Shown: one piece after another, positions 1,606-27,610 of the stretch
Layout: each line of letters opens with the position of its first letter
How positions within the stretch are numbered: the stretch's first letter is position 1
Assembly (NCBI GenBank): GCA_016188265.1
Contig: JACPID010000011.1
Span: 1 to 32,000, forward strand
DNA length: 32,000 nt
Direction: 5' to 3'
From: Candidatus Woesearchaeota archaeon
GTDB lineage: Archaea > Nanobdellota > Nanobdellia > Woesearchaeales > ARS49
Notes under the pieces: generated by a model
The model's database searches: none
Seen by the model: the letters and a program-made list of their open reading frames with translations, nothing else
What the model was told of the DNA's origin: nothing
Program-made: the position numbers and the translations under genes

Positions 1606-2337
1606 ATGAAGTTCCAAAATATTATTATAATTATTTTGTTGTTAATGTTTAGTGCTTGCAGTCAGCCTGTTGTTGTTAGTTCTTCAGGTGAAGTTGTTGA
1701 TAAACGTTTAGCTACTGTTTCTGGAAGATCTGAAATTGCATCTGCTCCTGATCAAGCAGAAATTGATGTAAGTGTTATTTCAAAAGGACGCACTCCAAAA
1801 GAAGTTCAGGAAAAAAATGCTGAAAATATGAATTCAGTAATTAATGTGCTTAAAAAATGGGGTTTTACTGATAAAGAGGTTCAAACAGGCCGTTATGATT
1901 TACAGCAGGACAGAAGATGGGATCCTGATACTAATCAGTATGTTGATTTAGGATACATAATTACTAATTCTGTTCACATTACAGCTAAAAAACTTGATGT
2001 TGTTGGTGATATTCTTGATTTGGTTGTTCAAAATGGTGTAAATCAAATTGAAAGAGTAAGGTTTAGTTTGAGCAAAGAAAAGCAGCGTAATGTTTTTGAT
2101 GAAGCTCTTAAAAAAGCTGCTGAAGATGCAAAATCTAAAGTAGATGTTTTGGTTAAAACACTAGGTGCAAAAATTAAAAAAGTGCACTCAATTCAAGAAA
2201 ATAATTTTATTATTAGGCCCTACGAATATGAAGGTTTTGCTCTTAAAGCTATGGCTGAAGTTAGAGCTCCTACGCCCATTATTCCTGAAGATGTAGAAAC
2301 AACTGCTCAAGTTACTGTATCTTTTGAATTAGAATAA
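1606..2337 (+). CDS. SIMPL/DUF541-domain secreted protein with lipobox-like signal
   Basis: Signal 'IIIIILLLMFSAC'. The overall pattern (PD.AEI...V, GRYDLQQ, GY...N.V.I, KKAAEDAKSKV..L) matches my memory of the SIMPL/26-kDa periplasmic immunogenic protein family. Confidence 0.65.
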   Translation: MKFQNIIIIILLLMFSACSQPVVVSSSGEVVDKRLATVSGRSEIASAPDQAEIDVSVISKGRTPKEVQEKNAENMNSVINVLKKWGFTDKEVQTGRYDLQQDRRWDPDTNQYVDLGYIITNSVHITAKKLDVVGDILDLVVQNGVNQIERVRFSLSKEKQRNVFDEALKKAAEDAKSKVDVLVKTLGAKIKKVHSIQENNFIIRPYEYEGFALKAMAEVRAPTPIIPEDVETTAQVTVSFELE

Positions 2338-13087: not shown

Positions 13088-13377
13088 TTAATTTAATAAA
13101 CTGAGATCTTCTTCAATATCCTCTATTGAATAGCTTGATATAAATCCTCGATCTATAAGATAATGTTGAAACGTCAGAAATTGCCACTCGCAATCTCATT
13201 GCTTCAGCTCGGAGTAAGAGGGCGATTTCTGAGCGTGATCAAAAACTACACGCTACCTACTTCAGTAGGTAGTTTTTGACAATCCCATAATGTAAGTCCT
13301 GCACGATGAGCTGCTTCTGTTAAAGAAATTTTGCCTTTTTTTATAGTTCTCTGTAGCTTTTTCTTTTGTTTTTCTAT
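13088..13377 (-). pseudogene. UPF0175-like small HTH gene, N-terminally truncated and interrupted by a 101-nt element
   Basis: On the minus strand, 13377-13282 encodes '..KKGKISLTEAAHRAGLTLWD'. 13180-13088 encodes 'FLTFQHYLIDRGFISSYSIEDIEEDLSLLN*'. Together they resemble UPF0175 ('GK.SLGKAAELAG.S.WEF...L...GI...Y..EDLEEDL'). The two parts are 2 nt out of frame, and removing exactly 13181-13281 (101 nt = 3n+2) restores the frame. No ATG start is present. Confidence 0.45.
13181..13281 (-). mobile_element. copy B of the structured repeat element, inserted in a coding remnant (MITE-like or intron-like)
   Basis: The minus-strand sequence is 'tgtcaaaaac'-hairpin(tacctac/gtaggta)-'cgtg'-'tagtttttgatcacgctcagaaatcgc' plus a ~40-nt tail. 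It shares the exact 21-mer with 7548-7568. Its outer stem is caaAaac/gttTttg against caaGaac/gttCttg in copy A. Confidence 0.4.
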
Positions 13378-14180
13378 TCATCATAATTTATATTAACCCT
13401 CTTAACTTCAATACTAACAGCATTATCCAATACTCTTATATATCTTGGGCATAAAGTATATGAATAATTATTTTTATTGCAGTAATCTATAATTTCTTTT
13501 TTTTGTTTTTCATTATTAAATTTTACAATAACATTAAAACCTAAAGAATTTTTATGAATTATTTCTTTTTCAGCTAACTCAATTTTAATTTTGTTATTTA
13601 TTTTATTAAAAAACTCTCTTCTTTTAGGTAAACGATCAATTTCTCTTTCTAATGCATTTAATTTTGACTGGTCAAAATTTGTATTTGTTATTAATTTATG
13701 TAGTTCTTCATCATTTGTTGCTATAAAACCGCCGTAGCCTAGATTTATTGGTTTGTAAGTCCCACAACTGCATAATAATATATTGCCAATTTTTCCATTT
13801 ATTGTTCCTATGCTTCCAGAAATATCATTTACTAATAAAACATTTTTTTCTTGGCACAATTTTTGTATGTTTTCCATAGGTTGTTCTGCTATGTATCCTG
13901 GCATTGAATTAACTAATAAAACTGTGTTGGCAGTTATTTTTTTTATAAGATCTTCTTCGTTAATGATTCCATAGTCTGTTTTTACTTCAATGACTACCAT
14001 TCCTTTTTTTCTCGCGTAACTTTTATATGTCAGCCAGCCTCCTTGATCTTGGATTAATAATCTTGTTTTTTGTAGTTTTTCAGCTAATTCTAAAACATGT
14101 TTTATTGCATGATCTCCACTTTGTGTGAGTGTTACAAATTTTTTTTGTGTTAATTCCTGAATTTTTTCAAGTGCGCTCAT
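13374..14180 (-). CDS. putative PLP-dependent (fold-type I-like) enzyme, short form
   Basis: 'LCSCGTYKPINLGYGGFI' resembles the S-x-x-K PLP-lysine segment of DegT / cysteine-desulfurase-like enzymes. At 268 aa it is shorter than typical family members. Confidence 0.4.
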   Translation of the reverse strand: MSALEKIQELTQKKFVTLTQSGDHAIKHVLELAEKLQKTRLLIQDQGGWLTYKSYARKKGMVVIEVKTDYGIINEEDLIKKITANTVLLVNSMPGYIAEQPMENIQKLCQEKNVLLVNDISGSIGTINGKIGNILLCSCGTYKPINLGYGGFIATNDEELHKLITNTNFDQSKLNALEREIDRLPKRREFFNKINNKIKIELAEKEIIHKNSLGFNVIVKFNNEKQKKEIIDYCNKNNYSYTLCPRYIRVLDNAVSIEVKRVNINYDE

Positions 14181-15518: not shown

Positions 15519-15928
15519 TGGCAGAATTTATTCTTTTATCATGTCGTGGATCTCATACCCATATTGGAAAAACTCATGATATTAAAGAAGTTGTGCCGAT
15601 TAATAATTTCATGACAGCATCAACTGAGCCTCTTGTTTATGCAATATCACTTAATAAAGATTTAATTGCAACAAAAATGATTTCTGAAACAAAAATTTTT
15701 GCTTTAAACTTTCTTTCTGAAAAATTTAAAGAAGCAGTTGTTGATTCTAGTAAGCACACTGGTGAGTTTCATGATAAGCTTTCTTTAATTAATTTAACAG
15801 AACAACCTACAGAAAAAATTCTAGATTGTTTTTCAATAAAAGAAGCTGAAAAAGTATTAGAGTGTGAAGTGATTCATGAATTTAGTTATGGAGATAGTGT
15901 TGTTTTTTTTGGAAAAGCGCTTAACTAG
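15518..15928 (+). CDS. flavin reductase-like (FMN-binding split-barrel) domain protein
   Basis: 'PINNFMTASTEPLVYAISLNKD...TKIFALNFL...HDKL' follows the flavin reductase-like domain pattern. The ATG at 15518 overlaps the upstream stop (ATAATG). Confidence 0.5.
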   Translation: MAEFILLSCRGSHTHIGKTHDIKEVVPINNFMTASTEPLVYAISLNKDLIATKMISETKIFALNFLSEKFKEAVVDSSKHTGEFHDKLSLINLTEQPTEKILDCFSIKEAEKVLECEVIHEFSYGDSVVFFGKALN

Positions 15929-18680
15929 TTTGTTCTACAATCCATAAATTCATCATATTTAAAAATTTATTAAGATCTGGTTCATTTATAACAATTGGTT
16001 TTGTACTGCAGGCAATATCACTGGTTATGTCAAAACCATATACTGGGCTTATTATGTTAACTTTAGGAAATTTATAACAATTTCCAGGTTTTCCTTCTAT
16101 AATGCATGCATCATTTTCATTTTTTCCTAAACAAACAAGATTTTCTTCTGGAAGTTCAGTATTGCAAAATAAACCAGTACTTGGATCATTTCGACTTATA
16201 AAATCACACATCCCTGTTACTCCTCTATTTTTACACAAATCTCCTGAATTGTAACAATCTGGCATTTTTAAAAATTCATCAAGTGAGCTTAGAGTTCCTG
16301 AAAACTCAATTTCTCCACTTAAAATAAGTTCTCTTAAAATTTCAGCATTTCTTCTATCTTGTTCAGAAGGCCATTTGTATGATAACGATCTTAATAGATC
16401 AAGTGTTTCATCAATGCTGTACTTAAGTGGTTTTTCCTCACAGTTTATGGTATAACTTAGCCCCCTGCCTCTTAAGTCAAACAGTGGCCGAGCATATGTT
16501 GATAGCCTTACTTCTATTACTGCCTTTCTATTGCAAATTCCATCTTCTCCTGATTCAGTTTTACATTTGTTTCCTTCATCGCTTCCACCTCTGCATCCTG
16601 GTGTGCTTCTGCTTATTTTGCAATGTAATCTTAAATCATTATTAGCAATATCTGTATAATCACAATCGCCTGACATCCCTTCTTTCTGGCAAAGATATCC
16701 CCATCTTTGACAACCGTCCAACTGAATGTAACAACTTAGTTTATCTTTTTTAAACGCATCAGTATAGCCACAATACCCTTTTTGGTCATTTATCTCGCAA
16801 GGATATCCTTCGCTATATGGATTGTCGCATTTACTTTTTTGCAGAAGTCTATTAATCAGATCTCCGCAATTTTCTTTTTCATGCAGTTCTTCTACTTTGA
16901 ATGGTTCATTGCAAACATAATTGCTGGCAGGAGGTATATAGTAACCTTCAGTTTTAAGGTCTACACAACAAATTCTTTTTTGTTTTGGAGTTTGTGCAGG
17001 CAAAATTTGAGTTGGTGTTACTTGGGCAGGGGTGTCGTCTGATATTGGTGTTACTGATACTTGCAGTTTCGGTGGCGCCTGAAATCCTACTTCTGGCAAT
17101 AAGCAAATGCCATCTTTACATCCGTGTTCACATTTAATAAGTTTCCAACTCCCTACATTTTTGAAATTTCTTTCTGTACAATAAAACTCTTGTACATATT
17201 TTACGCCTTCAATTTCTTCACAATAATCTGTGTGTTGTTTTGTGGCGCCTGATTCATCAGTCCAGCTTGTTGTTCCTTTTATTTCTGGATTGGAGCCACC
17301 ATCACTATCTTGACAAGTTTTGGGTTCTGGCTTGCATGCGCTGTTTTCACAACCCCACGTGCAGTATTTTGTTTTCACAGCCAGTTTATTATCTTGGCAT
17401 AAATATTCTTTTAAATCCTTTCCTACACAACTATCAGTCTCAGTATCTATCAGTTTGCAATCCCATTCACTTATACAACCTAATTTTACTCCTGTTGTTG
17501 TTCCTTTTACTTCAAATGCTTCACCATTATCAGAGTCATTACAAATATTATCTTTTTGACAGGTTTTTTTATCCCAATTCCAATAACAATTACTGCCTGA
17601 TTCGCGGCAGGAATTATAATCTTTATCAGAACACTTTGATTTTATATCTTTAACACATGCACCATTTTTACATGCATCTGGACAAGTTAAATCTTCAATA
17701 ACAATATTATTTCCTTGGCAGTAATGTTCTCTTAAAGTATTTTTATTTGTGCATGCATCTAGTCCGCCAGTTCTTATTCTGCAATCTTGTTCATTCGCGC
17801 AAATAGTTCTAAAACCAAATGTATGTCCTTGAACTTCTAAATCTTTTCCATTATCTGATTCAGAACAAGTTTGTGTGTCTGTGCAACTATTTGTTTGCTG
17901 ATCCCAGTAACATGTATGACTGTCAAGACATTCATCCATAGATTGTAATTGATTGCAAATTAATTTTGGTTGCGATTTACACTCTCCGTTTTCACAACCA
18001 TTTTCACATTGTTTTACTTTAAATGCAGCAAATATTTGATCTTCTCCTTTGTTAGGATGCGCACTACAATAATATTCAATCAAGCAAGGTCCTTCGTTAC
18101 TTGCATAGCTTCCAACAGAACCAGAACAAAGTGTAGTGCATGTATCTTTATGTGGTTTAACATTTTTTGGTATAGGATCCCACCAAGCAACAACCCCTGT
18201 AGTTTCTCCTGCAATATCATAATTTTCTCCATTATCAGTATCGGTGCAAACTATTGGCTCAGTTCTACACTCTCCATTTTCACAACCATATTGGCATTTG
18301 TATCCTTCATGAATATATTGCCCGGTATTTTCCCAATAGTTTGGCGGACAAAAGTTTTCAATTAAATAACAATTATCTCCTGCGCAGCTTGAAACTTCTT
18401 TACCTCTGTCAGAAACAATATGTCCATCCCATAAAAACCCTGGATTAGCAATGCAAAAATCAGGATGATCAAATCTGTCAATTACTCCGCTAACAACTCC
18501 TTTTATATCATAATTTTTTCCTCCATCAGTATCAGTGCATTGTGCTGTTAATGTTGGTGACATTGCAACTTGTAATCCTGTAGGAGAAAGTACAGAATTC
18601 ATTACAAAAATACCAGCTAGTGCAATAAGAATTATAATTGAAACATACAAGTAATTGTATTTACTTTTTTTTAATACCAT
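15921..18680 (-). CDS. 919-aa N-terminally anchored Cys-rich modular surface protein
   Basis: The N-terminal TM is 'YVSIIILIALAGIFVM'. I count ~70 Cys by hand. There are five 'C-x-D-[ST]-D-[GN]-G ... C-x-x-G-C-x-[ND]-G-x-C' modules. Two 'C..C..CYW[DN]..C' spacers follow, then a Pro/Thr/Gln linker and 4-5 small four-Cys modules. Confidence 0.8.
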   Translation of the reverse strand: MVLKKSKYNYLYVSIIILIALAGIFVMNSVLSPTGLQVAMSPTLTAQCTDTDGGKNYDIKGVVSGVIDRFDHPDFCIANPGFLWDGHIVSDRGKEVSSCAGDNCYLIENFCPPNYWENTGQYIHEGYKCQYGCENGECRTEPIVCTDTDNGENYDIAGETTGVVAWWDPIPKNVKPHKDTCTTLCSGSVGSYASNEGPCLIEYYCSAHPNKGEDQIFAAFKVKQCENGCENGECKSQPKLICNQLQSMDECLDSHTCYWDQQTNSCTDTQTCSESDNGKDLEVQGHTFGFRTICANEQDCRIRTGGLDACTNKNTLREHYCQGNNIVIEDLTCPDACKNGACVKDIKSKCSDKDYNSCRESGSNCYWNWDKKTCQKDNICNDSDNGEAFEVKGTTTGVKLGCISEWDCKLIDTETDSCVGKDLKEYLCQDNKLAVKTKYCTWGCENSACKPEPKTCQDSDGGSNPEIKGTTSWTDESGATKQHTDYCEEIEGVKYVQEFYCTERNFKNVGSWKLIKCEHGCKDGICLLPEVGFQAPPKLQVSVTPISDDTPAQVTPTQILPAQTPKQKRICCVDLKTEGYYIPPASNYVCNEPFKVEELHEKENCGDLINRLLQKSKCDNPYSEGYPCEINDQKGYCGYTDAFKKDKLSCYIQLDGCQRWGYLCQKEGMSGDCDYTDIANNDLRLHCKISRSTPGCRGGSDEGNKCKTESGEDGICNRKAVIEVRLSTYARPLFDLRGRGLSYTINCEEKPLKYSIDETLDLLRSLSYKWPSEQDRRNAEILRELILSGEIEFSGTLSSLDEFLKMPDCYNSGDLCKNRGVTGMCDFISRNDPSTGLFCNTELPEENLVCLGKNENDACIIEGKPGNCYKFPKVNIISPVYGFDITSDIACSTKPIVINEPDLNKFLNMMNLWIVEQTS

Positions 18681-18689
18681 GCAACTCTT

Positions 18690-19505
18690 TTAATTGTAGA
18701 TATTAGGATTAACTTCTATTTCAAATCTTAATGTTGCAGCTCCGCAATTAGGGTATGTTCCTGCTGTGTTTGGTTTGCATTGGCAGGTGTATTGTTTTTT
18801 TGCATCCATTAATCCTGAATCCCAGCACCCCGGAGTATCTTTGAATGCTGCACATGACCATTTACTGTTTCCTGTAGCTCCACGGCATAATGTTGCTACA
18901 TCTACTGTTGGTTCTCCTTTAAATCCTGTCATTCCCATACCTCTAGTATCTGGTAATGGGTGTGCTCCTCCTGGTGGTGGAGGTGGTGCTGGACCAAATG
19001 GTGATTTTTTTGTGTATCCTCTAGTTGCTCCAGGTCCTGAAATCACGTATTCTCTAAATGGTAATTCTTCTTGTGTTAGCATTGTTCTTTGTTCAGCAAA
19101 ATAAACTCCTGCCATTACTTCAGGTTTTTCTTTTTCAGGCTTTTTTGTTGTTAATTCTTTGCAAGCTTTTCCTTCACTAAATTTAGCTTTTTCAGGGCAC
19201 ATGTTTGTACATGTTGCTCTTGTTAGATCATCTGCTTTTAAATCACCACATTCGCAACATCCTGTTGGTTCTGGTTCAGGCTCTGGAGCAGTTGGTTTGT
19301 ATGATTTTAGTTGTTGTGATTCTTTTAATACATTTTGTCTTACTTGAGAAATTAGTTGAGGCACATTTAAAGTTGTGTCTTTAAAAACTGGAAAAACTGC
19401 AAATCCAAAATGAGATTGTCCTGTTAATTGTGTTGTCAATAATAATCCAAGAAGTGCAAATCCTGCAACTAGAAGAAATATTATTAATTCTGTGCTTGCC
19501 TTCAT
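18690..19505 (-). CDS. 271-aa secreted or anchored Cys-rich protein with a possible type IV pilin-like (class III) signal
   Basis: The N-terminus is 'MKASTELIIFLLVAGFALLGLLLTTQLTG'. 'PEPEPEPTGCCECGD', poly-Pro 'GPAPPPPPGGAHPLP' and a C-terminal Cys-rich segment follow. Confidence 0.7.
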   Translation of the reverse strand: MKASTELIIFLLVAGFALLGLLLTTQLTGQSHFGFAVFPVFKDTTLNVPQLISQVRQNVLKESQQLKSYKPTAPEPEPEPTGCCECGDLKADDLTRATCTNMCPEKAKFSEGKACKELTTKKPEKEKPEVMAGVYFAEQRTMLTQEELPFREYVISGPGATRGYTKKSPFGPAPPPPPGGAHPLPDTRGMGMTGFKGEPTVDVATLCRGATGNSKWSCAAFKDTPGCWDSGLMDAKKQYTCQCKPNTAGTYPNCGAATLRFEIEVNPNIYN

Positions 19506-19612
19506 TAATCACACCTTTTTTTATTACTTATTATTTTTACTATTTAAGTATTTTGTTACTATTTTATAATGGTCATGAATGTTTTTAATTGTACACATCT
19601 ATAATTGTTTTC

Positions 19613-20653
19613 ATGAAGTATTTTTTTTTATTTTTTTTGATTTTTATTACAGCGTGCTCTTCTTATAAGTCTTGGAATAGTGATGCTCAATGCTATATTC
19701 AACTTAATGATGTTTATAATAAATTAAGTGAAAAATATGGTGAGAATGTTTTTGATCTTAGTATTGAGCAAGAGATTCAATCTGGATTTCTTCCAATTGA
19801 ATCATTGGATTGTGTTACAAAAGATAGCCAGCAAGGAGTATGCAAAAAACTTGTATTTGATAAACAGTATTTTTGGAGTTGTGTTGCTGTTGATAAAAAA
19901 GTTATTGTTAAACTTGAAATTATAAATTTAGGTGCTAAGACTAAAATAATTGTCACAGATACTTCACCAAAAAAAAATGATTTGTTTATTGACAAACAAT
20001 TAATACCTTTAACACCAATAAGTTCTATTCGTGCAGAAGCAACAATCACACTTCAAGATGAAAAAATCTGTGAAGATAAACCTCAAGGAGTGCAATACCC
20101 TTCAGGGCCTTTAACCCGTTATCCTAATAATTTCTTTTTTTGCCCTCCAAAAGATGGTGAATCACTTTTAACATATAAAGATCAAGTTATTTTATTGGAA
20201 TTTTTCAAAAAAGAACCAGTTAAAATACCTTTTTGCACTATTTCAGTAAATTCAGGCAATACATTGTATGTTAAAGTGAAGTTTTCTGATGAGATAACTT
20301 ATGATTTTGATTTTGAAAAAAACAAATGTATTGTTGATCAAAAAGGCAAGGTATTTAGTCTTTTGCTGAATCCTCCTAAATTAGCAGAGCAAGAATTAAA
20401 CAAAGATCAATGTTATGGTGTTTTAGCTGGAAATATTGAAAGTGTTGGCTTTGAAATGAAAAAAACAAACTGTCCTTTAGGTTGTGATGACGTTACTGGT
20501 TTGTGTAAAACAAAATATGAAGAATGGTGTTGTGTTGTTGAGTTGGCGGGCGGAAGAACATCATCAGTAATAGCTTCAGGCCCTGAAGATAAATACTGTA
20601 CTGGAAAAATTAAAAAATCAACAACAGGAAGTTGTGAAGAATTTATACATTGA
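19613..20653 (+). CDS. Cys-rich secreted protein with lipobox-like signal
   Basis: 'MKYFFLFFLIFITAC|SS' is present. The track start at 19589 is TTG; the ATG is at 19613. The C-terminal 'EEWCCVVELAGG' motif is shared with neighbouring genes. Confidence 0.7.
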   Translation: MKYFFLFFLIFITACSSYKSWNSDAQCYIQLNDVYNKLSEKYGENVFDLSIEQEIQSGFLPIESLDCVTKDSQQGVCKKLVFDKQYFWSCVAVDKKVIVKLEIINLGAKTKIIVTDTSPKKNDLFIDKQLIPLTPISSIRAEATITLQDEKICEDKPQGVQYPSGPLTRYPNNFFFCPPKDGESLLTYKDQVILLEFFKKEPVKIPFCTISVNSGNTLYVKVKFSDEITYDFDFEKNKCIVDQKGKVFSLLLNPPKLAEQELNKDQCYGVLAGNIESVGFEMKKTNCPLGCDDVTGLCKTKYEEWCCVVELAGGRTSSVIASGPEDKYCTGKIKKSTTGSCEEFIH

Positions 20654-20689
20654 AGTTTTAGATTTTTTTAATAGAAAAGTTTATACATA

Positions 20690-20715
20690 AGTAGTCTACT
20701 TTAAAGTAGACTACT
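20690..20715 (+). terminator. perfect 10-bp hairpin after the 354-aa gene, preceded by a T-run
   Basis: 'agtagtctac-tttaaa-gtagactact' forms the hairpin. The T7 run 'gattttttta' lies at 20661-20670. Confidence 0.4.
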
Positions 20716-20875
20716 ATGGAAAGAACTTATTTTGTTAACAGGCAAAACTAAACTATATGCATTATTCAGCAAAAATGGTTTTAAAAAAGAATTAAAAGAT
20801 TATGCAAAGAAAGATAAAAATATTGTTCTTTATGATCTCAAAAAAATAAAAGAAAAGCTTTTAAAGAATAAGTGA
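20705..20875 (+). pseudogene. C-terminal remnant of an archaeal ATPase (DUF234-type) gene
   Basis: The frame without an ATG encodes '..WKELILLTGKTKLYALFSKNGFKKELKDYAKKDKNIVLYDLKKIKEKL'. This resembles the '..ilFSksGFt.el.e.a...nv.L.dl' C-terminus of that family. Only ~56 codons remain. Confidence 0.35.
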
Positions 20876-21274
20876 TAAAATAATCTTAGAAGGCTTAAAA
20901 GGGTTGAATGGTGAAATTATTAAAAAATCATGCATTAAAGTTTTTTTTAGTTTTTGCTATTTTACTTGTTTTTTTAAGTTCAGCTTTTGCTCATAAACTT
21001 ATTCCAGAAGAACCGCAATCACCACATGAAAGCTATACTCTAACTGGGAAAGTTGTTGCTGAACAAGTTCTTTCATGTGGTGAGTCTAGAGGTGTTGAAA
21101 GATATGGAGTAATACAAGTTCCTTTGTCTAAAGGTTTAGCTGAAAATCTTGGTAAAAGATTTAAAAGTTTTATTTTTGAAAAATATTCTAAAGAATTTTA
21201 TGTTCCTGAAAAAATTAAGGCTGCGTGTGTTGAAGCTAAAAAAATGTGCGTAAGTGATATGTTAAAAGTAACTT

Positions 21275-21294
21275 CACAATTCTCCACAATTCTC
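21275..21294 (+). repeat. exact 10-bp tandem duplication (cacaattctc x2) that causes the frameshift
   Basis: 21275-21284 is identical to 21285-21294. This was read directly from the sequence. Confidence 0.9.
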
Positions 21295-21961
21295 TTGTCA
21301 AAATGCTTGTCCTCGAAGTGTTGGTGCTATTAGTTATTCTGATTGTACTGTTGCAGTTCAAACGCGTGATTCTGATGGTTATCCTGAAATGCTTACTTCA
21401 AGTGTTTCATGTTCTAATAAAGTAAGTTGTGGAGAAGTTCAAGGGCCACCACCTGGAATACCTAGTGTTGAACTTCCTCTAGGCGAACCAACGCCTGAAG
21501 AGGAAAAACCAAAAGCAGTAGCGAGAGAAGGAAGACTTCCAGAACCAAAAATAAAAAAGCCACCTATTTTTGAAAAACCAACTGTTGAATCTTTAAAAAT
21601 TAATTGTGGTTCAACAAAAGCAGGTGTTGGTGTTAGTAAAGTTAGTTTTGGCGGTTATACTGATGTTAGAAAAGTTTATGAAGATTATCCTGATATAGCA
21701 AATGTTGTTAAAGCATCTAGTAAAAGTGATGCTTTAAACCAAATAAATTATTATTATATATGTTCTGATGATAGATGTGAGAAAACATACAAGATTTGCT
21801 CTGACCCTTTGATTACAACATTGCCTGAAAATGATAATATGGTTGTAAGTTCAAAATGTTCTTTTTCAGTTACTTGTTCTGAAATAAGTGAACAACCAAC
21901 AATTCCTGTTTTAAGAACTGAACAAGAAATTCCTCCTTTCACACCTTCATTCTGGCCGTCT

Positions 21962-22001
21962 GGTCCTGCGCCTGCTGGTGAAGGTGAAACTTCTGGAAAA
22001 G
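21962..22001 (+). repeat. 40-nt block shared with 26153-26192 (1 mismatch)
   Basis: 'ggtcctgcgcctgctggtgaaggtgaaact[t/c]ctggaaaag' encodes 'GPAPAGEGET[S/P]GK' in paralogues A and C. Confidence 0.85.
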
Positions 22002-22171
22002 AATTTTATACACCGTATTGTGGTGATTTTAAGAAAGATTTAGGTGAAGATTGTGATCCTCCTGGTAGTGTTAGTGTTGATGGTAAGTTTATTTGTGGTT
22101 CTGATTGTCAGTGGTTTGTTTCTTCAATAGTTGGAGTTCCTGGTCAGGTTTACGGTCCTTTACCTCAGCCT

Positions 22172-22365
22172 GTTTGTGGTAATGGTGTAAAGGAAGGTGC
22201 TGAGGTTTGTGATGGTAGTGTTGGTTGTGCTAGTGGTCAGTCTTGTTCTAATGATTGTAAGTCTTGTTTTACTCCTGCTATTAGTTTGCCTAGCGCTCCT
22301 CCTGTTTGTGAAGAAGGTGAGGATGTGCGTTATTGTGTTTGCAACATGTTTAATAGTTTGGGTCA
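22172..22365 (+). repeat. composite repeat, copy in paralogue A (exact 63 nt + 60-nt variable cassette + exact 71 nt)
   Basis: 22172-22234 is identical to 24341-24403, and 22295-22365 is identical to 24464-24534. The 60 nt in between have equal length in both copies but only about half are identical. Confidence 0.9.
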
Positions 22366-23309
22366 CTGTTGTCCTGCTAATACTTACTGGAATGGTGTTC
22401 AATGCGCAGCTTATCTTGCTGGAGGTCCAACAATAATTGGAGCGCCACCAACACCCACGTATACTTATGCAAGGGTTGTTGCAAATCTTTTTAGTGCTAC
22501 TGGAAAAAGTATTATGAGTTTTACTGGAATGCAGTCTTTTGCAGCAAAAGGAGAAGGCGCTGGAAGGCAAGTTCTTGATCCTGCATGTGCTCCTACTGTT
22601 TTAATGAGTCGCGTTAAAGAAGTTGAGTGTAGTGTTGGAGAAACTAAACTAGAAAAAGGCTGGGTTTGGGATACTTGTTATGAATGTGTTAAAACACCAC
22701 TATGGCCTGCACAGTGGAGAAGTACTGATATGAGCCGTTGTGAAGGACAAAAACCTCCTGAAAAAGAAGTTGAAAAACCACGAGCTCCTCTGGGAGAAAG
22801 ACCACCAGAAAGAAGATCACCAACTCCTCTGGGAGAACTGCCTGGTCGTCCAGGAAGTGGATTACTCCCTCTTGAAGGATCAGAATGTTCAGAAGGTGAT
22901 ATAAAATGTGAAAGTGAAGATGGCGGGTGTTATTATCAAACTTGTGTTAATGGAAAGTTTACAAGTAAAGATTATGTTTCAACAAGTTGTGAGGAGTTTC
23001 TTCCTGGAAGAGTATGTTCTTCAAAAACAATTAAACCACAAACTTCCCCTCCGGGTGAAAGACCATCACCTCCTCCTGCACCTAAAGAAGAACCTAGAGG
23101 ATTACCACTTTCCGGAGAACCAGCAGAAAGACGTGTGAGTGATGAAAAAGTTTGCAAAAACGGCGCTACAAGAAAGTGTAAGATTGTAAAAGGTACAGAA
23201 GGCGCTGTCTGTAATTATGAGGTTTGTAAGAAAAATCAATGGGTTTATGACAGTGTAGTTATACCTCCTGATGTTGTGTATGAAGAGTACTGTTCATGTT
23301 AAAGCTTAT

Positions 23310-23349
23310 AGAAAACGAAATAAATAATAGGACAATAGTTTCGTTTTCT
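23310..23349 (+). terminator. 11-bp perfect hairpin downstream of paralogue A
   Basis: 'agaaaacgaaa' (23310-23320) pairs with 'tttcgttttct' (23339-23349) across an 18-nt loop. Confidence 0.35.
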
Positions 23350-23350
23350 A

Positions 23351-23398
23351 AATAGTACGCGCCATAAGAGTGTCCTACAAATTATGGCGCGTACTATT
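23351..23398 (+). promoter_or_regulatory. 17-bp perfect inverted repeat overlapping the first ATG of paralogue B
   Basis: 'aatagtacgcgccataa' (23351-23367) pairs with 'ttatggcgcgtactatt' (23382-23398) across a 14-nt spacer. The core is GC-rich in an AT-rich genome, and the ATG at 23384 lies inside the 3' arm. Confidence 0.4.
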
Positions 23399-25153
23399 AA
23401 GCAAAAGTTTTTGACAGGTCTGGTTATGAGATTTCCAAAAATAACTTATTTGATGATTTTATTTATTTTACTAGTTTTGTTTTTTTTAAGCAGTTGCAGT
23501 ACTCCTTGTGTTGAAGAAGGTCTTGAAAAGTGTTTTGGCACTAGAATGTTAAAGTGTGAAAATGGCTTATGGGCTTCTACTGGAAACTTTTGTGAGTTAA
23601 TGCCTGAACAAATCTCAAAAGAAGCGCCAAAGATTATAGTCTCAGAATATACAAAAACAAGCATTGCAATAACAAATTTATATGGTAGTGAACAGCAGGA
23701 AAAATCCTTTATTTCAGAAGTTGATGTTTTTAGTTCTAAGCCTGGAAAAATAAGTATTATTGATGAAGCAAATTTAATTGCTGGTGAAGAAAATTTAGGA
23801 GTTTGTGAAAAAGTTAAAGGTGTTCAAAAGCTTAAAGCAAATTTTGTTAAGTTAGATGCTCCTGAATTAGGAGTTCCTCAATATACTATTATACATTTGC
23901 TTGAAGAGCAAAAAGAAATATTGTATGAGTGCCCTCCAAATACTATTTTAAGAAAATCTGAAGCAACTGGCGAATTAGTATGCTATCCTGAAACAGTTTC
24001 TAAACCTGAATTAATAATTGAAATACCTGAACTTCTAACACAACAACCACAATTTCAACTTCCTGAATTAGTAGTGCCTGTTAAAGTTATTCCAGGAGTG
24101 TTTGAACCGCCTAAAATTATAAGCATAACTCCAATAACTCCAAGCATAACTCCTAGTATAATTCCAGAAATTCCTGAAGTAAGTCAATATTGTGGTAATG
24201 GTATAAAAGAGGATGCTGAGGTTTGTGATGGTAGTGTTGGTTGTGCTAGTGGCCAGAGTTGTTCACTGGACTGTTCTTATTGTTTTACTCCTGCAATAAC
24301 TGGACCTATTCCTGGAACTCCTCTTCCTCCTGCTGTTGCTGTTTGTGGTAATGGTGTAAAGGAAGGTGCTGAGGTTTGTGATGGTAGTGTTGGTTGTGCT
24401 AGTCCTGCTCAGTGTAGAAATGATTGTCAGCAGTGCATAACTCCTGCTATTTTAGTACCCCATGCTCCTCCTGTTTGTGAAGAAGGTGAGGATGTGCGTT
24501 ATTGTGTTTGCAACATGTTTAATAGTTTGGGTCATTGTTGTCCTCTTAATACTTACTGGAATGGTGTTCAATGCGCAGCTTATTTTGCTGGAGGTCCAAT
24601 AATAGTTGGAGTGCCACCAACACCAGATCTTGCATATGCAAGGGTTGTTGCAGATGTTTTTAGCGCTACTGGAAAAGTTGTTGCTGAACAAATTTCTGAA
24701 AAAAAAGAAGTTTATTATTGTTGCACTGACCAGCATGCTGGCAATTACATTGTTGAAACTAAAGATGTTCTTGAATGTATTAATTCTCATTCTTCTCTAG
24801 TTCTTGACAAGTGCGATGTTGGACCTCAAGCAATGGGCGCTTCAACTTTAAAAGAAGCTAAAGATCTTTGTTTGTACACTTATGCTTGTGTTGAAGATAA
24901 AATCCTCAAGTATTGTGGAGCAGAATATGTCAATAAAGCGCCAGCCGACAATTATCCTATAAAAGAGAAAGTTTATTGTCCGAAAAAAGTTGTTATTGCA
25001 ATTCCTCAAGAAGATGTAATCATAAACAAAATACTGGCTGTAAACAAAATAATGGTTGAATACCGGCCTATAAAATACATCGCTGTTTTGCAGCCAGTAA
25101 TTGTAGTCTTAGATAAAGAATGTGCTGAAAAAATAAGCGCGTTAAGACAATAG
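23384..25153 (+). CDS. Cys-rich secreted modular protein (paralogue B) with lipobox-like signal
   Basis: 'LMILFILLVLFFLSSC|STPC' is the signal, and the alternative start M15 lies at 23426. Two 'CGNG..E.AEVCDGSVGCAS' repeats are followed by 'PPVCEEGEDVRYCVCNMFNSLGHCCP' and then 'YARVVADVFSATGKVVAEQ'. Confidence 0.8.
   Translation: MARTIKQKFLTGLVMRFPKITYLMILFILLVLFFLSSCSTPCVEEGLEKCFGTRMLKCENGLWASTGNFCELMPEQISKEAPKIIVSEYTKTSIAITNLYGSEQQEKSFISEVDVFSSKPGKISIIDEANLIAGEENLGVCEKVKGVQKLKANFVKLDAPELGVPQYTIIHLLEEQKEILYECPPNTILRKSEATGELVCYPETVSKPELIIEIPELLTQQPQFQLPELVVPVKVIPGVFEPPKIISITPITPSITPSIIPEIPEVSQYCGNGIKEDAEVCDGSVGCASGQSCSLDCSYCFTPAITGPIPGTPLPPAVAVCGNGVKEGAEVCDGSVGCASPAQCRNDCQQCITPAILVPHAPPVCEEGEDVRYCVCNMFNSLGHCCPLNTYWNGVQCAAYFAGGPIIVGVPPTPDLAYARVVADVFSATGKVVAEQISEKKEVYYCCTDQHAGNYIVETKDVLECINSHSSLVLDKCDVGPQAMGASTLKEAKDLCLYTYACVEDKILKYCGAEYVNKAPADNYPIKEKVYCPKKVVIAIPQEDVIINKILAVNKIMVEYRPIKYIAVLQPVIVVLDKECAEKISALRQ
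24215..24252 (+). repeat. third exact copy (38 nt) of the CGNG-repeat core
   Basis: 'gctgaggtttgtgatggtagtgttggttgtgctagtgg' is identical to 22199-22236. Its first 35 nt are identical to 24368-24402. Confidence 0.85.
24341..24534 (+). repeat. composite repeat, copy in paralogue B
   Basis: This is the partner of 22172-22365. High similarity with scattered SNPs continues to ~24625 (A: ~22455). Confidence 0.9.
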
Positions 25154-25195
25154 TGATGTGGTGAAGTTTCACACATAAAAATTTATAAGTAATAA

Positions 25196-27610
25196 ATGTT
25201 ATTTGTTGTTAAAGTGCATAAAAAGAGGAAAAAAAGCTGTAAAAGCAGTAATAATGCTTTGAAAAACAAATATGTTAAGCCTTTAATAGTTTTAACTGTT
25301 TTATTTTTATTTATTGGATCTATTTTTTTATTTGAATCAACTGGTAATACATTACAGGATACATTTGATAATTTGTTTCAACAATCTGTTAAAAGAGCAG
25401 AAATATCCCCTTTTGATCCTGATCATTTTCAAACTCAATTTCTCAAAGGCAGTCCTGAAGATTTAAGAAATGAAGTTTCAGGAACTTTTACTCCTGATAG
25501 AAAAGGTGGTGGAATTTTTAGTAATAGAGTTAGTCCACATTACCCTGTTGATGGAATGATAAATATTCTTTTTGCTCCAAAATCAGATTGCCCAAGAAAA
25601 ATAATTACTACTAGAGATCCTGTTGAAACATCTTTTAGTCTTGACCTGGCTTATGCAATGACTCTTCCAGCTTTAACAGAAATGCCTTTGGTTGTTTTAC
25701 CTGAAAAAGAAGAAAAAAAAGAAGCTTTTGCTATTGGTATTCCCTCTTTTGGCTGTAGAATTAGTGTTGAAAAAATAAAAAATAATTTTGTTGTTAAAAC
25801 ACCAGATCAACAATTTGATCTTCCAGGATCTGATCAAGAAGGCTGCATTAAATCTTCTGCTGGTGAAGTTGCTGTGCCTCGGGGATTTAGTGGTAAAACA
25901 GGAGTTATTAATCTTGATGGTCCTTGTCCTCAAGGAATTGATGCTGTTATTAGCCAACTTGGTTTTAAACCTATTGGCAAAATTAAAACTTGTAATCCCG
26001 GAGAATATTGTTCTAATGGAAAATGCCTTTCAAGAAGTGTTATTAGGCAAGCAAAACCAGTAGCAGCTCCTGATTTAGTAACAGTAGCGCTGCCACCAAA
26101 AGCAGCAGAACAGGTAGAACAGGCTATACCTGCTCTAAGAATAGGTCTTCCAGGTCCTGCGCCTGCTGGTGAAGGTGAAACTCCTGGAAAAGGATTTTAT
26201 GTACCAGTTTGTGGTAATTTACAGATAGATTTCGGTGAAGAGTGTGAGACTGGTAGTGGTACTTGTCCAGAAGGTTTTACGTGTGGTTCTGATTGTAAGT
26301 GTAAGAAACCTGTTTGTGGCAATAGTAAGGTTGAGGCAGGTGAACTTTGCGATGGTGATGCTAGTTGTAAGATAAGCATAAGTGATTGTAAATATGATCC
26401 TAGTTGTCTTTCAGCGGATATAAAATGTGTTAATAATTGTGGCAGCTGTCTTTTTCCTGAGTGTAAAGACGGTCAGAAAGTAAAGTGGTGTCGTTGTGTA
26501 CCCCCACTCGCTATTTCACCCCCAATCGATCTTTCAAATACTAAGTTATGCACTTCACAAAAAATTAGTTCTGTTTGTGGTAATGGTATTAAAGAGAGTG
26601 GTGAAAAGTGTGAGGCGGATGGTGATTGTCCAGATGGTTCTGTTTGTGATGTAGGTACTAGTAGTAACACTTGTGTTTGTGTATTTGTACGCGAACCTGT
26701 ATACTACGTACCACCTCCATCTCCTGATTTAGTAACAGTAGCAAAGCAACCATTAGTTTGCCCTGATGGTTCTTATAAAGTATGGGAGAATGGTAAAGAA
26801 GTATGTAAATATTATTATGGTATAACTCCTGAATATACCCCGACAGCTCCACAAACAGGAATTATTATTGTAGGAGGACCAGCTGCAAACGCACCTTATT
26901 ATGCGCGAGTTGTTGCACCATTATTTACAGGAATGCAAACTGCAAATAATTGTCCTGATAAAATATTTTCTGAAGAATTTGAAGAAAATACTAAAGAAGA
27001 ATGTAGTTCTGAATCTGAAGCAATAACTAAAAATGAAATCTTAACAAGTCGTCGTTGTGGAGAATTATGCGGCGGTATTAATTGTAGATACAAACCTCCA
27101 GCAATAGTATTTGATTTAAAATATGAAGATAATACTTGTAAAATTGATATAAAATGTGATTGTGAACCTGCTGATGAAGAACCAACAACATTTCCTGGCG
27201 CTCCTAAACCTCCTATTGTGCCAATTCCAACTGGAGAGCCTGTTCCTCCAGAAACAGAACCTATTCCAGAAAGTGTAGTTGATGGTGGTGGTGGAATAAA
27301 TGAAGGTAATGACCCTAACTGTCCTGTTGAGGAAAAAGTAAAACCATCTTGTGAATTTAGTAAGCAACTAAAAGAATTAAGTGATAAACCTATAGGAGAT
27401 AAAAGTGTTTGTGATTCTGCAAACACTATTGAAAAATTACAGCTTAATTGTGAAGAAGCTTGTAATGCTGATTCAGAATATAAAAAGAAGCGAGAAACGT
27501 GTATTTGTTCACCTAAATTTCAAAAAACAGTTTCAGAATGTAAAGAAATACAATCAGGTATTTGGCAGAGTACAGTTTCAGGATCATGTTCTTGTTCATG
27601 TAGGTCGTAA
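25196..27610 (+). CDS. 804-aa N-terminally anchored Cys-rich modular protein (paralogue C)
   Basis: The basic N-terminus is followed by the TM 'PLIVLTVLFLFIGSIFLFESTGNT'. Three CGN..GE.C repeats are present, along with 'YARVVAPLFTGMQ'. The internal 22-nt exact repeat 26067-26088 = 26721-26742 encodes 'PDLVTVA'. Confidence 0.8.
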   Translation: MLFVVKVHKKRKKSCKSSNNALKNKYVKPLIVLTVLFLFIGSIFLFESTGNTLQDTFDNLFQQSVKRAEISPFDPDHFQTQFLKGSPEDLRNEVSGTFTPDRKGGGIFSNRVSPHYPVDGMINILFAPKSDCPRKIITTRDPVETSFSLDLAYAMTLPALTEMPLVVLPEKEEKKEAFAIGIPSFGCRISVEKIKNNFVVKTPDQQFDLPGSDQEGCIKSSAGEVAVPRGFSGKTGVINLDGPCPQGIDAVISQLGFKPIGKIKTCNPGEYCSNGKCLSRSVIRQAKPVAAPDLVTVALPPKAAEQVEQAIPALRIGLPGPAPAGEGETPGKGFYVPVCGNLQIDFGEECETGSGTCPEGFTCGSDCKCKKPVCGNSKVEAGELCDGDASCKISISDCKYDPSCLSADIKCVNNCGSCLFPECKDGQKVKWCRCVPPLAISPPIDLSNTKLCTSQKISSVCGNGIKESGEKCEADGDCPDGSVCDVGTSSNTCVCVFVREPVYYVPPPSPDLVTVAKQPLVCPDGSYKVWENGKEVCKYYYGITPEYTPTAPQTGIIIVGGPAANAPYYARVVAPLFTGMQTANNCPDKIFSEEFEENTKEECSSESEAITKNEILTSRRCGELCGGINCRYKPPAIVFDLKYEDNTCKIDIKCDCEPADEEPTTFPGAPKPPIVPIPTGEPVPPETEPIPESVVDGGGGINEGNDPNCPVEEKVKPSCEFSKQLKELSDKPIGDKSVCDSANTIEKLQLNCEEACNADSEYKKKRETCICSPKFQKTVSECKEIQSGIWQSTVSGSCSCSCRS

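Follow-up and report, generated by a model that had tools for sequence, protein, structure and literature searches.

A cluster of genes for cysteine-rich, probably surface-located proteins depleted in N-glycosylation sequons in a Woesearchaeota archaeon

Tandem units that begin CGNGxxExGExCD are characteristic of DUF4215, or the Myxococcus cysteine-rich repeat (PF13948, IPR011936), which has also been found in a diatom adhesive-trail protein (bioRxiv 10.1101/2023.03.06.531300). In DPANN archaea, many of the lineage-specific protein families are membrane-bound or extracellular, and proteins with murein-transglycosylase domains have been described in Woesearchaeota and Pacearchaeota (PMC8204110). 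Moreover, lipoproteins, recognised by a lipobox of the pattern [LVI][ASTVI][GAS]C, have been predicted or reported to be prevalent in DPANN (PMC12462473). Here we compare with these systems a cluster of six adjacent genes for cysteine-rich proteins, located at positions 15921-27610 of a 32,000-nucleotide (nt) stretch of DNA, hereafter the window, from a 43-kb contig of a metagenome-assembled genome (MAG) of Candidatus Woesearchaeota (cluster locus tags HYV79_02850 to HYV79_02880). The nanohaloarchaeal SPEARE proteins are likewise large, lineage-specific extracellular proteins of DPANN, with recognisable domains.

The cluster products, here called A, B, C, D/E, F and G, show different degrees of similarity with the described systems. 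D/E, F and G share with DUF4215 the type of tandem unit, whose partner domains among the proteins checked are surface-type, but the units of E and F have six Cys instead of four and are devoid of the DDGN turn, while only two to three units are found per protein, set in sequence without relatives, and the Pfam model is not reached. Product A (A919) carries five copies, all with the six Cys, of the module CxDSDGG...EYYC...CPNGCxDGAC seen in a family of large proteins (P0004, P0006, P0009 and P0012 in our collection), but instead of the S_layer_C, CARDB or SLH domains of these relatives it has a unique C-terminal half of 350 amino acids (aa). The proteins of the cluster resemble the extracellular DPANN proteins of PMC8204110 in being large, apparently exported, lineage-restricted and candidates for cell contact; unlike them, none of the six displays a recognisable enzymatic or adhesion domain. 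C (ITAC) and F (LSSC) fit the motif of archaeal lipobox lipoproteins (AliA/AliB pathway, PMC12462473), and their lipidation is predicted. Finally, with animal disintegrin and PSI domains there is resemblance only, all scores being below significance (E = 0.26; 16.5 bits; Foldseek E > 0.6).

The cluster is best read as coding for lineage-specific cell-envelope proteins of this DPANN archaeon whose likeliest role would be adhesion or recognition, a reading to which we assign a probability of about 0.6. Seven open reading frames (ORFs) make up the six genes, one of which is split by a frameshift:

15921-18680, minus strand: gene A, an ORF of 919 aa, HYV79_02850
18690-19505, minus strand: gene B, an ORF of 271 aa, HYV79_02855
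19613-20653, plus strand: gene C, 346 aa from the ATG at 19613 or 354 aa from an upstream TTG at 19589, HYV79_02860
20908-21333 and 21389-23302, plus strand: split gene D/E, with D of 141 aa and E of 637 aa, HYV79_02865/02870
23384-25153, plus strand: gene F, an ORF of 589 aa, HYV79_02875
25196-27610, plus strand: gene G, 804 aa, or 798 aa from the NCBI start (GTG) at 25214, HYV79_02880

Frames of such length are not expected by chance, because about 7% of codons would be stops in DNA of such composition (our estimate from base composition). Cys accounts for 4.3-7.6% of the residues in the cluster products, against 1.27% in the 22 other ORFs of the window; Gly and Pro are also enriched, and His is depleted (0.7% vs 1.9%). 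A single hydrophobic segment is present in each protein, always at the N-terminus (hydropathy; Kyte-Doolittle 2.4-2.7 over 19 residues), and E637 has none, as expected of the downstream half of the split gene. A, B and G show N-terminal anchors, in G preceded by a basic cytoplasmic tail; D has a Sec-type signal ending in AFA|H; in C and F, the lipobox follows a basic n-region and a hydrophobic core. When the lipobox Cys of C and F and the tail Cys of G are left out, the Cys totals are even in A (70), B (12), C (16), F (34) and G (52). No significant match to an enzyme or any other family was obtained for the cluster products in Pfam, NCBIfam, PHROGs or the PDB sequences, and none of the seven ORFs matched S_layer_C (PF05124). 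Thus, three claims of a first-pass annotation made from the DNA letters alone, namely six adjacent genes for Cys-rich products, a hydrophobic signal or anchor at each N-terminus and no recognisable enzymatic domain, were borne out, the last at the sensitivity of the tools used. The Pro-rich linkers that it had ascribed to all members were found, as at least five Pro within a Cys-free window of 20 residues, in B, E, F and G; A has a single Pro/Thr/Gln-rich spacer under this threshold, and C and D have none.

A surface location is well supported by these N-terminal signals and anchors, by the two lipoboxes and by the even Cys numbers of five proteins. Furthermore, it is in line with the relatives of the A919 module, which mostly bear signals and in some cases S_layer_C, SLH or CARDB domains, and with the alignment of the E, F and G repeats to units of the DUF4215 type, some of them from a protein with an LPKTG anchor.

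An additional argument comes from the N-glycosylation sequon, N-x(not P)-S/T, which occurs once in the seven ORFs (3715 aa; A919 residue 381, ~17538-17540) when 19.5 occurrences are expected from composition (z = -4.6; a count as low in none of 400 shuffles). Control patterns stay at expectation, as is the case for the reverse sequon (19 vs 19.5), N[ST] (26 vs 21), N..[ST] (17 vs 21), D.[ST] (22 vs 24) and Q.[ST] (20 vs 15), and the other proteins of the window hold 23 sequons against 27 expected. Among the homologs of A the behaviour is bimodal: P0002, P0009, P0011, P0017, P0018, P0032 and P0039 have 0-1 sequons for 4-9 expected, while P0021, P0028 and P0037 are at expectation. The depletion being specific to the cluster products, it suggests their exposure to an extracytoplasmic glycosylation machinery. 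The simplest reading would be that these proteins meet an N-glycosylating oligosaccharyltransferase outside the membrane and have been selected to stay unglycosylated. If so, sequon avoidance would speak for export independently of the other evidence, and it would agree with binding surfaces left bare or with disulfide modules packed too tightly to take up glycans. Our literature search found no paper on sequon avoidance or on Cys-rich surface clusters in DPANN.

In A919, the N-terminal signal or anchor (residues 13-31) is followed by five six-Cys modules, between which lie two PSI-like inserts of four Cys each; a spacer rich in Pro, Thr and Gln then leads to the orphan C-terminal half. The module consensus of the internal alignment is C-x-D-[ST]-D-G-G...D-x-C...L-x-E-Y-Y-C...C-P-N-G-C-x-D-G-A-C:

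17103-18539, minus strand: modules R1-R5 (A919 residues 48-526), from the internal alignment
18267-18539, minus strand: R1
17979-18248, minus strand: R2
17655-17867, minus strand: R3
17334-17543, minus strand: R4
17103-17315, minus strand: R5
17883-17957 and 17559-17633, minus strand: PSI-like four-Cys inserts (CLD...CYWDQ) between modules
15924-16970, minus strand: orphan C-terminal half (residues 571-919), with 24 Cys, five small three-Cys units and a helical stretch with YARPLF

A search of 5.8 billion clusters found the module in 43 other large proteins at E <= 1e-3, from Woesearchaeota, Nanoarchaeia, Aenigmarchaeota and some bacteria. A signal-like hydrophobic N-terminus is present in 36 of the 43 and a C-terminal anchor in none; in P0004 the N-terminus reads MKKIILTAILLLMISVAGAA|NCTDTDGG. 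Several of these homologs carry S_layer_C, SLH, CARDB, FG-GAP or DUF4215 domains. The six Cys of each module are invariant or nearly so in a 25-sequence alignment, and A919 and its closest relatives also have in common the CLDxxxCYWDQ unit and a module-3 variant, HTFGFR...RIRTGG. From this alignment, AlphaFold2 modelled residues 142-346 of A919 as compact, mostly beta units with a mean predicted local distance difference test (pLDDT) score of 91.2. This two-module model gave nothing below E = 0.6 with Foldseek against PDB and BFVD, semaphorin and plexin being among the weak fold matches (E > 1), and a profile search of the PDB sequences with the module alignment was empty; the family is covered by neither a Pfam nor an NCBIfam model, and none of its members has a solved structure. 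As for PSI itself (PF01437), residues 242-280 of A919 score 16.5 bits, under the gathering score of 23.1 (E = 0.011), and this was the best score that any family gave for the cluster products. Taken together, the alignments and the predicted fold indicate that the six-Cys module is a real, widespread and unannotated extracytoplasmic domain without a solved relative. The C-terminal half of A919 behaves differently, as no homolog extends past approximately residue 560-640 and the number of alignments falls from 80 to 10 after residue 540.

In one of the loci collected (L082; 2972-8299 and 15561-19409), the gene for P0004 lies amid those of other exported proteins, comprising a von Willebrand factor type A (VWA) protein, a MopE-type Cu-binding protein and a 1282-aa BNR/sortilin-like protein. 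A loose clustering of surface-protein genes may be common in such genomes, with differing gene content.

D/E, F and G are local paralogs. Identity reaches 61% over 199 aa between E and F, 34% over 157 aa between E and G and 26-31% over 105-227 aa between F and G. The three proteins have the same internal order, consisting of a Pro-rich spacer, two to three CGNGxxExxExCD repeats, the stretch CEEGEDVRYCVCN...CCP.NTYWNG.QC and, finally, GGPxI[IV]G...YARVVAx[LV]F. The parts of each protein are the following (TM, transmembrane):

D/E: signal with the cleavage site AFA|H, spacers rich in Pro, two DUF4215-like repeats, the core common to E, F and G, and two C-terminal four-Cys modules
F: lipobox signal ...ILLVLFFLSSC, four-Cys module, Pro-rich spacer, two DUF4215-like repeats, the common core and an orphan C-terminal domain
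G: basic cytoplasmic tail, TM anchor (residues 27-45), three DUF4215-like repeats, the common core and an orphan C-terminal Cys-rich region
22019-22108 and 22175-22267, plus strand: DUF4215-like repeats of E (regular expression and alignment)
24191-24283 and 24344-24436, plus strand: DUF4215-like repeats of F (same methods)
26210-26302, 26315-26449 and 26576-26680, plus strand: DUF4215-like repeats of G (same methods)
22466-22492 (E), 24635-24661 (F) and 26900-26926 (G), plus strand: YARVVA-x-[LV]F block (invariant alignment columns)

E carries two copies of the small four-Cys module at its C-terminus and F a single copy at its N-terminus, a change of position that indicates a shuffling of modules. 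Seven CGNGxxExGExCD-type tandem units with conserved Cys spacing were found across E, F and G, as expected of homologs of DUF4215. A profile of the core matched 298 proteins, solely through the CGNG repeats (positions ~38-125), in a search of 1.84 billion representatives (~15 billion proteins), in which positions 130-228 had no match in any other protein. Seven of ten checked profile matches contain PF13948 at E <= 0.01, six of them above the Pfam gathering score, and DUF11, CARDB, cohesin or SdrD_B domains are also found among these ten. Moreover, a BLASTP alignment of F with P0069 (E = 1e-4) pairs the F repeats unit by unit with the four of DUF4215 type in P0069, a protein that ends in LPKTG and a TM segment; its units have four Cys, as against six in those of E and F. 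E, F and G themselves do not match PF13948 even at E <= 1 (gathering score, 27 bits). The repeats are divergent relatives of DUF4215. Similarity to the start of the ADAM17 disintegrin region (CGNxxVDEGEECD) was weak in a PDB-sequence profile search (E = 0.26). Searched alone in 5.8 billion clusters at 90% identity, G matched itself and one DUF4215 protein, and a metagenome scan with F589 found no relative.

These results also bear on two short motifs that the first-pass annotation had regarded as shared by otherwise dissimilar members. 'YAR..LF' is genuinely conserved as a block of E, F and G, three proteins that are paralogs, not dissimilar, and for the YARPLF of A919 (P ~6e-4 vs shuffles) the pattern is short and was chosen after the fact. 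The 'double-Cys box' did not stand up: CC dipeptides are at or below expectation (1 vs 5.3 in A; 0 vs 3.4 in G), and the sequences around them resemble one another no more than random windows anchored on Cys do (P = 0.23).

The presence of PF05124 in the A919 homologs P0005, P0006 and P0009, and of SLH in others, raises the question of whether the cluster proteins, predicted to be exported and modular, could be S-layer subunits or S-layer-associated structural proteins, building or decorating the wall lattice instead of acting as adhesins. For the relatives of A this is plausible. For the cluster itself we consider it unlikely, though still deserving attention, as none of the six proteins matches PF05124 or another S-layer family, and E, F and G are unique to the source genome, which would be unexpected for an essential wall component. 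The anchors and lipoboxes of the cluster products are atypical of lattice-forming S-layer subunits. Furthermore, archaeal S-layer proteins are usually heavily N-glycosylated, whereas the cluster proteins avoid sequons.

The two remaining products are smaller. B271 has two six-Cys domains, the first separated from a hydrophobic N-terminal anchor by a PEPEPEP spacer and from the second by a poly-Pro spacer, and it had no Pfam or NCBIfam match at E <= 10. Its identification as a type IV pilin-like protein was discarded, no class III signal (PF04021) being matched at E <= 10; its MKA|ST sequence does not fit the +1 rule of the FlaFind-type motif [KR][GA][ALIFQMVED]. C starts with the signal MKYFFLFFLIFITAC, which includes the lipobox, and continues with 16 further Cys; it is a predicted lipoprotein. 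Another lipobox signal, MKFQNIIIIILLLMFSAC, was observed in the window in a SIMPL/DUF541 protein (1606-2337, plus strand), which has 0 sequons for 1.5 expected, in line with the depletion in the cluster although the sample is too small for significance.

As regards the genomic setting, the flanking genes are flavin-reductase-like (PF01613) and metallo-beta-lactamase (MBL)-fold (PF13483), and the cluster is divided into divergently oriented gene groups, both as described in the first-pass annotation. The intergenic features are the following:

19506-19612, unstranded: AT-rich spacer of 107 base pairs (bp) that separates the divergent gene pairs and shows TATA-like runs on either side
20690-20715, plus strand: perfect hairpin with an 11-bp stem, just 3' of gene C

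The spacer would be a promoter region, judging from its runs, and the hairpin a possible terminator of gene C. A scan for bacterial promoters and terminators showed no excess over shuffles, its model being bacterial and inapplicable to archaea. Between C and D (20654-20907), the sole open frame is short and without a family match in Pfam or NCBIfam, ATPases included, so that the 'ATPase gene remnant' proposed for this locus is not supported. Further downstream, a perfect 13-bp inverted repeat, TAGTACGCGCCAT / ATGGCGCGTACTA (23353-23365 and 23384-23396), has its second arm across the annotated ATG of F, and might mask this codon by forming a hairpin or else be a binding site; an alternative start at Met15 of F gives a more typical lipoprotein signal. 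A second hairpin is found 3' of gene E (23310-23320 / 23339-23349). In addition, a TATA-like run, AAATTTATAA (25196-25214 region of the window), ends ~10 nt before the ATG of G, and a start at the GTG at 25214, 18 nt downstream, would fit a leaderless transcript with this run.

The GC content at third codon positions (GC3) is 0.13-0.19 in the cluster genes and 0.18 +/- 0.06 in the flanks, and the raised overall GC of the cluster is confined to codon positions 1 and 2, that is, to amino-acid composition. Since GC3 matches that of the flanks, the genes are native and not imported. A horizontally acquired island was therefore rejected, and with it the notion of an 'island' in the sense of foreign DNA; no integrase or transposase genes were found. 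A gene for a sugar aminotransferase of the DegT/DnrJ/EryC1 type lies ~1.7 kb (three genes) upstream of the cluster (13374-14180, minus strand) and hints that the organism makes modified sugars, with a bearing on surface glycosylation. A scan of species-representative genomes anchored on cysteinyl-tRNA synthetase (CysRS) yielded 80 loci, among which the source MAG is missing and the best match reaches only 65% identity. In 22 related archaeal loci the cluster did not adjoin CysRS and no window gene except CysRS was syntenic; gene order is not conserved across those 22 loci, which limits what they say on the conservation of the cluster.

The split of D/E and the similarity between the paralogs at the DNA level provide some information on the recent history of the locus:

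21275-21294, plus strand: 10-bp tandem duplication (CACAATTCTC twice), source of the +1 frameshift that splits D/E
22170-22507 vs 24186-24676, plus strand: tract of ~340 nt shared by E and F, 82-100% nucleotide identity
21962-22084 vs 26153-26275, plus strand: tract of 123 nt shared by E and G, 79% nucleotide identity

Deletion of one CACAATTCTC copy restores a single ORF of 794 aa, in agreement with the split gene of ~794 aa deduced earlier; the frameshift could be an assembly error or a reversible switch. The E-F tract includes 59 identical bases (22170-22228 = 24339-24397), and both tracts point to recent duplication or gene conversion. The ratio of nonsynonymous to synonymous substitution rates (dN/dS) is 0.99 for E vs F, 0.99 for E vs G and 0.68 for F vs G, and among the aligned columns those with Cys are more often conserved (15/22) than the others (39/156).

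Two independent per-run Logan assemblies (SRR12113424 and SRR12113422; L084 and L085), 99.99-100% identical to the MAG, both stop at 21105, within D. No repeat within the window accounts for the break at 21105/21106; its cause may be that the population is heterogeneous from this point on, 170 bp before the 10-bp duplication. The 7.8 kb that they cover (upstream flank, A, B, C and the start of D) differ from the MAG by one single-nucleotide polymorphism (SNP), a T/C at 18058 that is nonsynonymous (H208R) and affects a variable loop in the second module of A. A closely related genome or metagenome contig for comparison was found neither by the CysRS-anchored scan nor by that with F589. Variability of the locus, which had been suggested from the internal repeats and the frameshift, is thus possible but unproven: the duplication frameshift, the dN/dS values near 1, the gene-conversion tracts and the assembly ends at 21105 favour it weakly, while the single SNP across A-B-C between independent assemblies goes against it.

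The same data have to be considered in the light of decay, by which the genes would be non-functional paralogs drifting after duplication, D/E being the visible case. The frameshift and the dN/dS of 0.99 for E-F and E-G agree with it, as does the lack of relatives outside the source genome for most of the sequence. Nevertheless, decay is improbable, since ORFs of 589-919 codons remain intact despite a stop probability of ~7% per codon, Cys columns are preferentially conserved, F vs G stays at 0.68 and the depletion of sequons requires sustained selection; the frameshift itself could be an assembly error or a switch, as indicated above.

According to the envelope-protein reading, each product would be exported by its N-terminal Sec-type signal, after which it would either stay at the membrane or be set free. 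An uncleaved N-terminal anchor would retain A, B and G and a lipid on the lipobox Cys would retain C and F, while D/E, with a cleavable signal, would be set free or attach to further components of the envelope. Once outside, the proteins would fold as strings of small disulfide-stabilised modules, with five six-Cys modules in A and DUF4215-type repeats plus four-Cys modules among D/E, F and G; the Pro-rich spacers would serve as stalks, presenting distal domains that are unique to the source genome. On their way they would pass the N-glycosylating enzyme and yet remain glycan-free, which fits bare binding surfaces, and their role would be adhesion or recognition between cells, with a host or with a substrate. 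The genes for D/E, F and G would derive from local duplication together with gene conversion and the shuffling of modules, and would be evolving with little constraint outside the Cys scaffold.

The high Cys content could also be explained if these were secreted metal-binding or redox proteins, in which Cys coordinate Cu, Fe or Zn and form no disulfides, and one A919 homolog is indeed encoded near a MopE-type Cu-binding protein. This is very improbable, as CxxC/CxxCH-type motifs for metal or haem are absent, no metal-binding family is matched, His is depleted as stated above, and even Cys counts with fixed six- and four-Cys patterns are typical of disulfide scaffolds. Hardly more credible are secreted effectors or toxins against hosts or competitors, of the Cys-knot type, which would also be exported, Cys-rich and made by fast-evolving paralogs with lineage-specific distal domains, given that five of the six proteins are apparently tethered to the membrane by an anchor or lipobox, that no toxin, immunity or secretion-system genes lie nearby and that Cys-knot toxins are typically far smaller than these proteins.

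Several points weigh against the assignment to envelope adhesion or recognition. No adhesin or ligand-binding domain was identified in the cluster products, and hydropathy and motifs are the whole basis of the topology calls. Neither the core of E, F and G nor the C-terminal half of A nor B and C have recognised relatives, for B and C in family libraries and with no proper deep homology search made. The AlphaFold2 model of full-length F589 is uninformative (pLDDT 32, three-sequence alignment), repaired D/E has 47 Cys, an odd number, and the D/E frameshift and the E-F dN/dS of ~1 fit decay as well as diversification. Finally, the organism presumably inhabits anoxic groundwater, as we assume from the apparent origin of the MAG, and in such a habitat extracellular disulfides need an oxidant or a catalyst.

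The first-pass annotation had gone further, seeing in the locus a dedicated cell-surface or host-contact apparatus. There is support for the surface location; the dedicated host-contact apparatus is more than the data can bear, as no assembly or secretion genes were found at the locus and the cluster has not been seen elsewhere. A more elaborate version, in which the locus would be a fast-diversifying contact or recognition locus of an episymbiont, with tethered stalks of disulfide modules bearing genome-unique heads that stay free of N-glycans while the cell is otherwise glycosylated, and with paralogs switched or reshuffled by tandem duplication and gene conversion, is speculative and rather doubtful. 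If it were true, sequon avoidance would serve generally, at the level of sequence, to find the 'naked' binding proteins of DPANN.

The basic finding is an expected one, in that lineage-specific hypothetical extracellular proteins have already been described in DPANN (PMC8204110) and DUF4215 repeats are known. Of interest beyond this are the six-Cys family with its unmatched fold, the avoidance of sequons and those paralog sequences for which a search covering ~15 billion proteins gave no relative. The way in which DPANN recognise and hold other cells is largely unknown, and most of the candidate proteins are unannotated; this locus gives a concrete set of apparently tethered, enzyme-free, Cys-rich candidates. 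The six-Cys module, found in at least 44 proteins including A919 and having a confidently predicted fold, could be defined as a new domain family. Moreover, the loss of sequons, if it proves to be general, would mark both exported proteins and the surfaces that must stay unglycosylated.

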